A DNA stretch of 64,000 nt from a virus (IMGVR_UViG_3300017917_002349:97939-161938), one strand, 5' to 3'. Shown: positions 10,257 through 18,034, numbered from the stretch's first letter. Translations and numbers: made by a program. Notes: generated by a model not told the origin, from the letters alone.

Positions 10257-10287
10257 TCCAAGTTACCGCCGCCGGGAGCGAATCGGT

Positions 10288-13879: not shown

Positions 13880-14389
13880 GAGTTTACTGTGTTGTGCGGA
13901 TCGAATTCTTCCTCAGAACCAACTCCATTGGAGTCTAACCATTGATAGATCAGTTCCAGAGGACAGTCCAGTTGCAGGGCGATGCTCTTAGGGCCATAGC
14001 CCTCGATGTAGAGCTGCTCGATGTCATAGGCTAGATCGCTGAGACTCATCGTGCAGTCTCCTTCATGACTTCCTGGGTCTTACCCACAGCCTTATCGATA
14101 GCGGATGCTACGCCTGATACTCCAACAGTGGCCACAAACATACCTGCAATGAATGCCATTAGAATTTTCATGACTACTCCTTAAACAAACGCCCAATAAG
14201 AACCTACGGCTATTGCATAAACAGCAACAGCGTAGCCCAACATCTTTAGATCTTCTTTGAACAAATCCATGCTTGCTCCTTGAACATTTACGATACCTAT
14301 AGTATACAACCAATCTAGGATTTTGTCAACTACGCACACGTATAACAGCGGGGCCTGTAGCTAAAAAGCCACATCCCCTGGCACTCCTG

Positions 14390-15595
14390 TCAAGCTGTCT
14401 CTCTTTCGTAGATCACAGTCTGTCCAAAGGGTGCTTCTGCCTTGTCGTTGCCTTTGACAACGAATATGGTATCGCAGTAGTCCTCTTCACCCCAACCACC
14501 ACAAGGGTAGCCGTCCGTGAACATGATAAACTTCTTAGGACGAATGTCATTCTCCTGCATGAACTGCCAGTTGACTTCGAAGTCTGTGCCACCACCGCCC
14601 TGAGGTTCGTAGTCTAACAGGTCTTCACTGTTATCATGTGTGATCTCTTTGTGGTTATAGATCTCTGTGTCAAAGCACCACAGATTGACCTTGAAGTCCT
14701 CGAACTGATCCATGATGCCCTTGATCTCGCCTAAGAAAATAGTTGCATCTTCTTCACCGATACTACCACTCATGTCCATAGAGACCGCTACGTCGATGGT
14801 AGTGGCTTCCTTCATGCCCGGAAGGATAGCACCTGAGTGCATACTCTTGCGATTCACACGCTGGAAGGAATAGTCATTGCGGACGATGCTTTGGATCTCT
14901 TGGCGAACCAACTCGCGCCACGAAATCTTAGGCTCAGTCATAGACTTGATCATACGCATGATGCCTGCGGGGGTCTTACCTGCACCAGCGGCCGCGGCAC
15001 TCTGGATCATAGCCTCTTTGATCTCATCACGGATACGCTGAGCATCTTCCTTGCTCATGCCAGGACGATTGCCTTTGCCTTCTTTGTCGTCGCCTTCACC
15101 ACCTTGGCCGTCACCTTCTTTGATGTGCTCGTCAAGCAGATCGCCCAATTGCTTGAGCAGTTGATCCATAGGGATCTTCTCTGCCTTCTCATAGAGATCG
15201 TCGTAGATCTCTTCCCAGGCCATGCCACGGTACTTGGCATCATAGCAGATCTTGACCTGTGTGATTTTCTCGCCGATACGCTCGTCTACGAGGATCTGGT
15301 TCACAGCGAAGTCCTGTGCGATGTTGCTGAGCTGACGATCGCGACTACCAACACGGCCAAAGTGATCAAACACGCAGTGACAGATCTCGTGACCAAACAG
15401 GAATTCAAGTTGTTTAGGCGAGAGCTTCTCTACGAACTTGGTATTGTAGTAAAAGTCTCGTCCATTGGTTGCGGCAGTAGGACACCACTCGTCTGCGTTA
15501 ATAAGACGCATACGGGTTGCCATGTTGCCAAAGAAAGGAGCCTTGAGCAGTAGGCCTACTCGGGCTGTGATAAGTTTTTCTACGATTGGATCCAT
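14390..15595 (-). CDS. VWA-like domain / putative metallopeptidase (DUF2201-like)
   Basis: TAATNG, HEICH (HExxH), MIDAS DMSGS, GGGGTDF, FTDG. Confidence 0.85.
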   Translation of the reverse strand: MDPIVEKLITARVGLLLKAPFFGNMATRMRLINADEWCPTAATNGRDFYYNTKFVEKLSPKQLEFLFGHEICHCVFDHFGRVGSRDRQLSNIAQDFAVNQILVDERIGEKITQVKICYDAKYRGMAWEEIYDDLYEKAEKIPMDQLLKQLGDLLDEHIKEGDGQGGEGDDKEGKGNRPGMSKEDAQRIRDEIKEAMIQSAAAAGAGKTPAGIMRMIKSMTEPKISWRELVRQEIQSIVRNDYSFQRVNRKSMHSGAILPGMKEATTIDVAVSMDMSGSIGEEDATIFLGEIKGIMDQFEDFKVNLWCFDTEIYNHKEITHDNSEDLLDYEPQGGGGTDFEVNWQFMQENDIRPKKFIMFTDGYPCGGWGEEDYCDTIFVVKGNDKAEAPFGQTVIYERETA

Positions 15596-15652
15596 TAGTC
15601 GCTCTCCTTACTGTATGTATCTATTATAGCACCTCGGGCCCTAGTTGTCAAC

Positions 15653-15695
15653 CAAAAAGAAACCGGGCAGTGTTGCCATACTACAACACCCCCGG
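15653..15695 (-). terminator. intrinsic terminator ending the structured MoxR 3' UTR
   Basis: CCGGG-GGTGTTG/CAACACT-CCCGG stem followed by TTTCTTTTT. Confidence 0.65.
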
Positions 15696-15777
15696 CACCC
15701 TCCGCCAGTGACTAGATGGCGCGGAAAAGGGTGGGCTAGAGCCCTGGGGAGCCCTAGCCCTAGGCTACGGTGAGGTC

Positions 15778-16866
15778 TTAATTGTTCTCCATAGCCGTCA
15801 ACACATACTTGCCGAAACGCTTGTGGAACTCGTCGAAGCTCTGCATCTTGGTAGCGTCAAAGGGCAGGTTGTAGTTGGTGAGTCCAGTCTTGGCACCCAT
15901 GACAACCAGCTCAGTCGGGAAGTTATCCATCATGTAGCGGAAGAACAGGTCAGCCTTGTCGTCAAACTTCTTGTCCTTTTTCTCAGCGGCATCCTTGAGC
16001 TCGTAGCAGAGGCTAACGGTCAATGAATACATGGCACTGACTTCTTTGATAGCCAAGTCCTTGACCTTGCCTTCGAGGATGTCGGAAGCCTTAGGCAATT
16101 TGCCTGCGATCTTGCGGTGAGCCATAAACTTCACAGCCAAACCGTCACCGATAGCACCTGCGATCAAGTTCTGCAGGGTCTCGTTGTCAGTGTCATCGTC
16201 ATTGAGCAGGTCGCTGACGAACACCCAAGAACGAGGAGTCGCAAATGACTTGCTAGGGCTCTTAGGATCGAAGTCATAGAGGTCTTGCTTGGCAAAACCC
16301 ACATAACCAACGACCTCAGGGTGGATGTCGTTCATAACAGCCCACTCTTGGAAGTCATCGAAGTCTACCTTCATCTCCAAGTGGACGAAACGGTTTGCCA
16401 ACGGAGCAGGCATACGGTAGGTAACACCACGGTCGCCTTCACGGTTACCAGCGGCAACGATGTCCACGCCCTTGGGCAGTTCATAGGTGCCTACACGGCG
16501 GTTAAGGATCAACTGATAGGCCGCGGCTTGCACGGCAGGAGGAGCGGAGTTAAGCTCGTCCAAGAAGATCAATGCAGTGGAGTCTGCATTGGTAGGCAGT
16601 TCTGCAGGAGGAGCCCAGACCATCTTGCCCTGCTCTGCATTGTAATAGGGGATGCCCTTGATGTCTGTGGGTTCCCAAAGAGCCAGACGAACGTCAATGA
16701 CCTCACGGTCCATCTCAAGACCGATCTGCTTGACGATATCGCTCTTACCGATACCTGGAGGGCCCCACAGGAATGTAGGACGGCGAACTTTGATCGCCTT
16801 ACGGATCGCCTTTTTGGCGCTCTTAGGGCCACATTGACGAACGGAAATATCTTGTGCTTTTGCCAT
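15778..16866 (-). CDS. MoxR-like AAA+ ATPase
   Basis: Walker A GPPGIGKS, Walker B IFLDE, AAGNR, LANRF, TPRSW; adjacent to a VWA partner. Confidence 0.9.
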   Translation of the reverse strand: MAKAQDISVRQCGPKSAKKAIRKAIKVRRPTFLWGPPGIGKSDIVKQIGLEMDREVIDVRLALWEPTDIKGIPYYNAEQGKMVWAPPAELPTNADSTALIFLDELNSAPPAVQAAAYQLILNRRVGTYELPKGVDIVAAGNREGDRGVTYRMPAPLANRFVHLEMKVDFDDFQEWAVMNDIHPEVVGYVGFAKQDLYDFDPKSPSKSFATPRSWVFVSDLLNDDDTDNETLQNLIAGAIGDGLAVKFMAHRKIAGKLPKASDILEGKVKDLAIKEVSAMYSLTVSLCYELKDAAEKKDKKFDDKADLFFRYMMDNFPTELVVMGAKTGLTNYNLPFDATKMQSFDEFHKRFGKYVLTAMENN

Positions 16867-16941
16867 TTAAGACCTCACTAAAGTTAGAACAAACAAACTG
16901 CTTTCCCAGTATCATTATTGTAGCACCTCTCGGTGCAGTTG

Positions 16942-17577
16942 TCAACCACTGATTTTCACGTAGTTGAGCTGTGTGGCGCCGTTGCCACGGTGTTGCTTGA
17001 TCTTGCCCTTGATGCGCACAGTGCCCTGGAGTTCCTTGGTATGCCAGAAATCCACGATGCTGTCACCCATACGTGCATCCATGCGGTACTTGCCATATTC
17101 TGCGTTGTACCGTGTGCGGATCACAGTGACATCACCCACGATGGTATCACCTACAGCGCCCGGGAGCGGTTGGGAACTGAAGATCTCTCGCTTGAGTTCA
17201 GCATGCGCAGCATCACGCAAGGCCACTGAGGGCAAACAGCTGATCACAGCGAAATCGTAGATATCACGACCCGTGAACTCTTCTTTGGCTGCAATCCGCA
17301 TGGCAGTCTGCTGGAAATCATTCATCTTGCCTGTGAGAGCCAACAGCGTGTATGATTTGAAGTGATCCCGGGCTGAGCGTCCTGCAGCGTAGTCGGCTTC
17401 AGTGATCTGGGTGAAATCGTTGTCGCGGAGCCATTGCTTGACCATGGCTTTGTTGGCTCGCTTGTCGACCACGTAGCTTTCGTCGATATAACGGCCTTTG
17501 TCCTCTTTGAGATACTCACCGTTGATGCGTTGAGCTGCTGCCGCGGCACCCCAAACTTGATCTGCTGTAAATTGCAT
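16942..17577 (-). CDS. hypothetical protein, possible C-terminal OB-fold
   Basis: 211 aa, beta-rich C-terminus ending TQLNYVK. Confidence 0.7.
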   Translation of the reverse strand: MQFTADQVWGAAAAAQRINGEYLKEDKGRYIDESYVVDKRANKAMVKQWLRDNDFTQITEADYAAGRSARDHFKSYTLLALTGKMNDFQQTAMRIAAKEEFTGRDIYDFAVISCLPSVALRDAAHAELKREIFSSQPLPGAVGDTIVGDVTVIRTRYNAEYGKYRMDARMGDSIVDFWHTKELQGTVRIKGKIKQHRGNGATQLNYVKISG

Positions 17578-17712: not shown

Positions 17713-17758
17713 CAAAACCGCCCCGGGAGCGAATCGGCTTGGTTTTGAGGAGCGAACC

Positions 17759-18034
17759 TTAGGCTACGGTCCAACCAGCTGCCTTGGCCATGTAACCAAG
17801 TGCTACGATTTCACGGCTGGGTTGACCCAACTCGTACTCAGTGACTGTGACACCGTTGCCTGCTGTGCGGCTGTTTGCGTAGACAGCATAACCACCTTGA
17901 CGGATGCGGCTAGCTTCTGCGGCTAGATTCTTTACACCAAAACGCTTGCTGGCCTGAGCGGCTGTAAGAGTTTCACCATTGTAAAGAGCTTGGAAGACCT
18001 TGAAAGTCTTGGTTTCGGGATTGAATCGCTTCAT
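17759..18034 (-). CDS. winged-helix-like DNA-binding protein
   Basis: GETLTAAQASKRFGVKNLAAEASRIRQGGY HTH-like pattern followed by a beta wing. Confidence 0.65.
   Translation of the reverse strand: MKRFNPETKTFKVFQALYNGETLTAAQASKRFGVKNLAAEASRIRQGGYAVYANSRTAGNGVTVTEYELGQPSREIVALGYMAKAAGWTVA

Follow-up and report, generated by a model that had tools for sequence, protein, structure and literature searches.

A phage gene for a MoxR-like ATPase whose ribosome-binding site is complementary to its own stop-codon region: comparative evidence for a conserved 5'-3' helix and a proposed closure of the mRNA

The window, that is, the whole stretch of viral DNA analyzed (64,000 nt), carries a gene for a MoxR-like AAA+ ATPase (Table 1). 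The predicted protein matches the Pfam families AAA_5 (33 bits; cut-off 22) and AAA_3 (29.4 bits; cut-off 27), as well as PHROG 1297, annotated as "ATPase" (E 5e-102). A sigma70-type promoter precedes the gene, at a position kept in 21/21 representative homologues, and transcription is predicted to start near 16910, 7 nt after the -10 hexamer, giving a transcript that begins ACUGGGAAAG... and has a 5' UTR of 44 nt. Two hairpins lie downstream of the gene. The stem of the first, terminator-like one covaries in homologues (95% paired, double changes in 5 of 7 pairs), while the second, present in some homologues only, is probably a back-up terminator. Judged by these predicted ends, the MoxR mRNA appears to form a transcription unit of its own, bounded by a sigma70 promoter and a terminator. 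The downstream gene is of the VWA type, the usual kind of MoxR partner.

Some further observations concern the surroundings of the gene. The second hairpin (GUGUUG...CAACAC, a TGT-N12-ACA palindrome) is placed just upstream of the next promoter and looks like a second intrinsic terminator on the transcribed strand. The DUF2201 partner gene falls in PHROG 1314 ("HNH endonuclease"), a label that looks wrong for its product. Between positions 14000 and 18500 almost every gene has its own near-consensus sigma70 promoter (TTGACA, 17 nt, TATAAT or TATACT), often preceded by a terminator, which makes this region a string of single-gene transcription units.

Table 1. Features of the MoxR locus in the window (RNA letters refer to the transcript).
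Feature	Sequence or elements	Position	Strand	Basis or remark
Promoter of the MoxR gene, sigma70-type	TTGACA, 17 nt, TACAAT, TG before -10	16917..16945	minus	11/12 matches
Predicted transcript 5' end	ACUGGG	16905..16910	minus	inferred from promoter
5' arm	GUGAGGUCUUAA	16867..16878	minus	SD GAGG and 6-nt spacer; abuts ATG at 16866
MoxR-like AAA+ ATPase gene	362 aa	15778..16866	minus	Pfam and PHROG match
Internal coding segment	UUUUGCCAAGCAAGACCUC	16279..16297	minus	two 8-bp blocks able to pair with the SD/AUG region
3' arm (anti-RBS)	UUAAGACCUCAC = U-UAA-GACCUCAC	15770..15781	minus
Hairpin 1, terminator-like	GGGCUAGGGCUC-CCCA-GGGCUCUAGCCC, then ACCCUUUU	15723..15760	minus	folding; GC-rich, short U run
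Hairpin 2	CCGGGGGUGUUG...CAACACUGCCCGG, then UUUCUUUUU (longer U run)	15654..15695	minus	folding
Promoter of the next gene	perfect consensus	15623..15651	minus	12/12 matches; marks end of the MoxR unit
Next gene	Pfam DUF2201_N putative metallopeptidase and DUF2201 VWA-like domain	14390-15595

The gene is bracketed by a perfect 12-bp inverted repeat, noted in a preliminary description of this DNA: GTGAGGTCTTAA (15770-15781, plus strand) has its exact reverse complement in TTAAGACCTCAC (16867-16878, plus strand). The match at both sites is exact, and the RNA sequences then assigned to the two arms, one carrying the SD and abutting the AUG, the other spanning the stop codon, proved correct, the gene lying on the minus strand. 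The 3' arm is composed of the last coding nucleotide, the UAA stop (15780..15778) and the first 8 nt of the 3' UTR. Since the predicted promoter and terminators enclose them, both arms are placed within one predicted mRNA. A search of the whole 64,000-nt window revealed no further exact copy of either 12-mer.

The mere existence of such a repeat is not significant, because 12-mer inverted repeats no more than 1.5 kb apart occur in the window at chance frequency (12 seeds, about 9 pairs, vs. 7.1 +/- 4.6 in dinucleotide shuffles); this count, the one point in favor of a chance complementarity, was dropped as evidence. A position-specific comparison gave a different picture. Among approximately 105 ORFs of the window, only the MoxR ORF shows perfect complementarity of more than 8 nt between its own start (-30..+3) and its own stop region, and non-cognate start/stop pairs are mostly complementary over 4-6 nt, with 1 of about 1250 reaching 12 nt or more. 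Together with the conservation, the covariation and the absence of the helix from a sister clade, described below, this null refutes chance, to which we assign a negligible weight. Start/stop self-pairing as a genome-wide habit was also rejected, as no second ORF in the window displays it. Another rejected candidate was an antisense gene for which the complementary strand of the 3' arm would serve as SD: the window contains only a 31-codon TTG frame there, and its start is not conserved (ATT or TTC in homologues). The 3' arm has no complementarity to the SD of the downstream VWA gene (AAGGAGAGCG).

Homologous loci were collected in several steps. A first scan of viral contigs yielded 80 loci with 83-93% protein identity to the MoxR-like protein; a second scan, seeded with the most divergent locus of the first, added further members of the clade and a sister clade at approximately 70-74% amino acid identity, and three more close loci (L163, L164, and L165) were taken from MAG contigs. 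The bins of the latter (Beijerinckia, Fluviibacter, and Aquiluna) were considered as indicators of the host and discarded: they represent unrelated lineages, and the loci, which lie on short contigs, probably derive from mis-binned freshwater phage. The close clade comprises 93 loci with 45 distinct arm pairs, and 50 distinct 5'/3' haplotypes were aligned. Apart from the helix arm, its 5' UTR is poorly conserved and contains many indels.

Compensatory changes between the arms, which had been proposed as a check on the preliminary description, are abundant in these homologues. A perfect Watson-Crick helix of 7-13 nt (mode 10) joins the SD to the stop region in 50/50 distinct haplotypes, in at least 10 different compensated versions that are scattered over the tree built from the coding sequence. 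These include: (i) GUGAGG.../...CCUCAC of the window, (ii) GCGAGG.../...CCUCGC of many loci, (iii) ACGAGG.../...CCUCGU (L067, L103, and L163), (iv) GGAGG.../...CCUCC (L055 and L071), (v) AGGGGUCUUA/UAAGACCCCU (L074), (vi) AGAGGUUA/UAACCUCU (L052), (vii) AGGUCUAGU/ACUAGACCU (L066, L072, and L077), in which the stop codon has changed from UAA to UAG with matched changes opposite, (viii) GAGUGAGGAAG/CUUCCUCACUC (L020), (ix) ACUGGAG/CUCCAGU (L054), and (x) CCGAGUGGA/UCCACUCGG (L164). The conserved, covarying core consists of the SD and the spacer that separates it from the AUG. On the other side, the 3' arm begins within -2..+2 nt of the stop codon in most haplotypes. An insertion in L068 shifts it to 18 nt downstream of the stop, with the arm still intact, and in every other variant it stays within the ribosome footprint of the stop.

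The pairing was quantified in two ways. In a plain MAFFT alignment, in which several variants are out of register, a condition that counts against structure, 89.2% of the cells are paired, compared with 84.3% in shuffles (0/500 reach the observed value) and 37-52% with slid partners, and double changes occur in 14 pairs vs. 7.0 expected. When arms were compared directly, cognate arms formed helices of 10.16 nt on average, vs. 8.77 nt for swapped arms (0/5000 permutations). RNAalifold applied to the column-wise joined UTRs detected no more than 4 bp of this helix, owing to indels that shift the variant arms out of register; the arms were therefore registered sequence by sequence.

A perfect inverted repeat bracketing a single gene is formally also what would be expected of a DNA-level feature, such as recombination or inversion sites, paired protein-binding sites or a leftover scar, and the helix contains almost no G-U pairs, too few to serve as strand-specific proof of selection at the RNA rather than the DNA level. 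The comparative data speak against such a feature, which we consider very unlikely. In 20/21 representative loci the gene has an unchanged orientation between its promoter and the VWA gene that follows (in L068 the DNA downstream differs); one arm invariably coincides with the SD and its partner invariably lies at the stop; and the genes flanking the repeat encode no recombinase domain. Moreover, each of the 10 or more arm sequences and the shifted registers would need a matching change in a binding protein. The recombination scar offered as an alternative in the preliminary description is not supported either, as a scar would not persist in at least 10 compensated versions.

The sister clade (49 distinct loci) provides a natural negative control. 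The helix between SD and 3' region is absent in 49/49 of its loci, in which the best start/stop complementarity amounts to 3-7 nt, consists mostly of A/T runs and seldom touches the ribosome-binding region; all 49 have a simple terminator directly after the stop codon. The helix is likewise absent in the homologues of two distant phages, PA5oct and the jumbo phage Vibrio phage 2.275.O. Because it is conserved and compensated in the close clade and absent from the sister clade, the sequence comparison indicates that the helix was gained in one lineage and then kept by selection for pairing.

Folding predictions point to a thermodynamic dominance of this helix. In the full-length mRNA of the window it is part of both the MFE and the centroid structures, with a mean probability of 0.98 in the partition function; among 12 diverse homologues the value is at least 0.92 in eight and just 0.03-0.44 in the remaining four. 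The isolated helices have energies of -9 to -20 kcal/mol across the variants (-17.4 for the 12 bp of the window). Transcripts of increasing length were also folded for the window, L004, and L002. At every length that stops 15 nt or more short of the ORF end, the unpaired fraction of the SD arm is 0.24-0.59, and inclusion of the 3' arm lowers it to 0.00-0.13. Long-range folding, also suggested as a check at the outset, therefore places the SD in the 5'-3' helix only when the 3' arm exists. As equilibrium predictions, which ignore ribosomes and folding kinetics, these results show that burial of the RBS by closure is thermodynamically feasible, and that no other part of the mRNA occludes it to the same degree.

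Two other pairings were noted in the coding sequence. An extension of the helix (CGUCAA/UUGACG), predicted in the window fold, was set aside as window-specific and not conserved. The internal segment UUUUGCCAAGCAAGACCUC shows 84% complementarity across 19 nt with the SD, the AUG and the first codons (16858-16876), and acts as a minor competitor in the partial-length folds. This pairing is probably not under selection, judging from the alignment, because its anti-SD half varies at synonymous sites among homologues (alignment columns near 680-697). It could nevertheless sequester the RBS transiently in the window phage, which blurs a simple picture of an mRNA that is open until finished.

When the 3' UTR is folded alone, the anti-RBS arm is essentially unpaired. 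A separate observation was made in L004, L006, L008-L013 and similar loci, where the arm ACCUCGCCC has a potential alternative partner in GGGCGGGAGG, a sequence resembling an SD that makes up the 5' half of the terminator stem. This pairing, approximately 3-35 nt after the stop, is the MFE structure of the 3' UTR folded alone in many homologues, and it may represent an antiterminator/terminator choice tied to the occupancy of the arm. Its equivalent in the window (UAGCC/GGCUA) is weak.

We propose that the finished MoxR mRNA closes in cis through its 5' and 3' UTRs and buries its own RBS, stopping new initiation; we give a probability of roughly 0.65 to this reading, in which closure in vivo, repression and cis action are inferred from the comparative and folding results. 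During synthesis the SD would be largely free and ribosomes would load. As soon as RNA synthesis has passed the 3' arm, and provided that no terminating ribosome sits on it, the ends of the mRNA would snap together, the RBS would be buried, and protein output per transcript would be capped; closure may also shield both ends of the mRNA from nucleases. Nearly all variants have the 3' arm on the stop codon or shortly after it, so that a terminating ribosome would have to melt the helix, and closure is therefore expected to compete with ribosome traffic, which would make the functional lifetime of each mRNA dependent on translation. As regards structure, the covariation and the predicted thermodynamics give good support to the original suggestion of a completed transcript that folds closed over its RBS. 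Its further parts, namely that translation would occur only co-transcriptionally or after processing and that closure would be a timer for an early gene, remain inferences.

Covariation does not distinguish pairing in cis from pairing in trans, and phage recombination makes the number of independent events behind it uncertain. The same changes would fit equally well an sRNA-target pair, in which a piece of the 3' UTR accumulates after decay of the mRNA and pairs with the RBS of other MoxR mRNAs. The layout of the 3' UTR, a single-stranded 5' seed followed by a Rho-independent terminator and a U tail, also resembles that of processed 3'-UTR sRNAs. The cis partner, however, is always present in the full-length mRNA at a far higher effective concentration, neither an sRNA nor a processing site was observed, and the overlap of the arm with the stop codon in nearly all homologues would be unneeded for a free-standing sRNA seed. 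Feedback in trans is for these reasons improbable in our estimation, even though it heads the list of alternatives, which continues by weight with a closed loop of positive function and end protection (both discussed below) and ends with the unlikely DNA-level repeat.

Besides the helix, the two ends of the mRNA seem to be related by a second contact. In homologues the 5' end reads ACUGAGAA and the terminator apex UUCUCAG, and CUGAGAA, starting from transcript nucleotide 2, is complementary to this apex, located some 30 nt beyond the stop codon. With the helix set aside, the longest complementarity left between the UTRs begins at predicted transcript nucleotide 2 in 43/49 haplotypes, and complementarity of the 5' end to the apex over at least 7 nt is found in 53% of the haplotypes vs. 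3.8% of shuffles. One position covaries (A/G at position 4 with U/C; AU 42, GC 5). Five haplotypes, including the window, have CUGGG at the predicted 5' end, and CCCAG occurs at the apex of terminator 1 in exactly these five, which makes a match of 5 bp in the window; they belong to more than one group on the CDS tree. Some homologues have an extra CCUGAGAA copy adjoining the SD. According to the folds, the 3' partner of the contact lies partly inside a weak apical stem of the terminator. For the clade we regard this contact as likely; for the window phage it is uncertain.

This contact, and the position of the helix, can also be read in terms of a closed loop with a positive, translation-coupled role, in which the helix is melted by each ribosome that reaches the stop codon, so that the adjacent SD is freed and termination licenses, or hands over to, a new initiation on that mRNA, while the contact between 5' end and apex keeps the ends tethered as long as the gate is open. 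The helix does bring start and stop codons face to face, its 3' arm lies within -2..+2 nt of the stop in most haplotypes and within the range of the ribosome footprint in all but the +18 case, and the CUGAGAA/UUCUCAG contact could serve as the tether. Against these points, the reading is conjectural throughout, the tether of the window measures just 5 bp and is partly inside the apical stem, and a bacterial precedent for such ribosome recycling was not found in the literature searched. We consider this role doubtful. A stricter form, in which the gate between SD and stop is opened only by a terminating ribosome, so that co-transcriptionally loaded ribosomes are recycled from stop to start and de novo initiation is excluded, is a similarly speculative proposal.

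The complementarity of the extreme 5' end to the terminator apex is compatible, too, with stabilization of the mRNA by 5'/3' pairing as the main function, the occlusion of the SD being a tolerated side effect; a shielding of this kind, by a 5'/3'-UTR interaction that protects against RNase Y, operates in the hbs mRNA (PMC5737220). This explanation seems to us slightly less probable again, since the covarying core, the SD and the spacer to the AUG, is the worst pairing site for keeping expression, and distal anti-SD elements destabilize mRNAs in Bacillus subtilis (PMC12697547).

Other anti-RBS motifs occur in the window. The extended SD AGGAGCGA is common to other early genes (10 copies vs. 1.4 expected), and UUCGCUCC is present in 3' UTRs at 17725-17757 and 10270-10285 (minus strand), between the stop codon and the terminator of two unrelated genes, with two copies after the gene ending at 17759. 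It is complementary to the shared SD AGGAGCGA of other genes and not to the SD of its own gene, and is a phenomenon related to, but distinct from, the self-pairing of MoxR. In read-through transcripts UUCGCUCC could occlude the RBS of the next gene, upstream of which it would lie, and transcripts from the proximal promoter would escape. Such 3'-UTR motifs directed against a shared early SD suggest a wider use of these elements in the phage lineage.

Few natural long-range 5'-3' interactions are known in bacterial mRNAs, and three reports of long-range interactions are cited in one study (PMC12697547). The MoxR case is naturally conserved and has unusually clean comparative evidence, with many compensated variants and a sister clade without the helix. 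The unit would offer a ready-made system for studying how transcript completion, ribosome traffic and mRNA closure set the amount of protein per transcript.

Several known systems share individual features with the MoxR mRNA. In MS2, long-distance interactions restrict translation to nascent RNA, and in the early transcripts of the T4 genes e and soc the RBS is occluded; in these cases the occluding partner lies upstream or inside another cistron. As proposed here for MoxR, RNA folding limits translation to particular transcripts or nascent chains. We know of no phage case of the MS2 or T4 type in which the SD of a gene pairs with its own stop-codon region, and a phage example of such pairing was not found in the literature searched.

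The hok mRNA, to which the locus was likened in the preliminary description, encodes a small toxin, has Sok as its antisense RNA and becomes active when its 3' end is trimmed; 5'-3' pairing that includes the extreme 5' end keeps the full-length mRNA closed and translationally inert, with the SD hidden by elements other than the 3' end. The principle of fold-back is shared, and so would be the closed full-length mRNA, with CUGAGAA or CUGGG paired to the terminator apex as the candidate 5'-end contact in MoxR. The MoxR gene, in contrast, encodes a 362-aa ATPase, its 3' element pairs directly with the SD, and a small toxic ORF with a conserved antisense element was not found at the locus. The analogy with the fold-back inhibition (tac/fbi) of this type I toxin-antitoxin system, discussed in PMC9841398, is limited to the fold-back principle; the locus is not a type I toxin gene, and the closest known case is icaR (PMC3868564).

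In B. subtilis, the UTRs of the hbs mRNA pair naturally, and this pairing couples stability to translation (PMC5737220). It resembles MoxR as a long-range pairing of both UTRs in one bacterial mRNA, and differs in that the hbs SD is not buried. Saturation mutagenesis in the same bacterium revealed that base pairing between the RBS and distal anti-SD-like 8-mers inhibits initiation and accelerates mRNA decay; these pyrimidine-rich elements act from hundreds of nucleotides downstream and are normally depleted from genes (PMC12697547). The physical mechanism is the same as that proposed for the MoxR mRNA and the distance is similar, but the reporters contain synthetic insertions, whereas the MoxR element is positively conserved at a fixed place.

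In the icaR mRNA of Staphylococcus aureus, a UCCCCUG motif in the 3' UTR pairs with the SD of the same mRNA and blocks formation of the initiation complex; icaR had been chosen among mRNAs whose 3' UTRs exceed 100 nt, and RNase III cleaves the duplex (PMC3868564). In both mRNAs the 3' UTR contains a complement of the gene's own SD region, over 12/12 bp for MoxR in the window. Typical RNase III substrates are longer than a 12-bp helix. The pairing in icaR is backed by experiment and that in MoxR by broad covariation; the icaR 3' UTR is long, while the MoxR anti-RBS overlaps the stop codon, and the MoxR helix (10-13 bp) reaches the AUG, so that start and stop face each other. MoxR also differs in belonging to a phage with sigma70-type promoters and in the likely second contact through its 5' end. 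The closure proposed for the MoxR mRNA would work like that of icaR, and what sets it apart is the overlap with the stop codon, the start facing the stop, the likely 5'-end contact and its occurrence in a phage gene.
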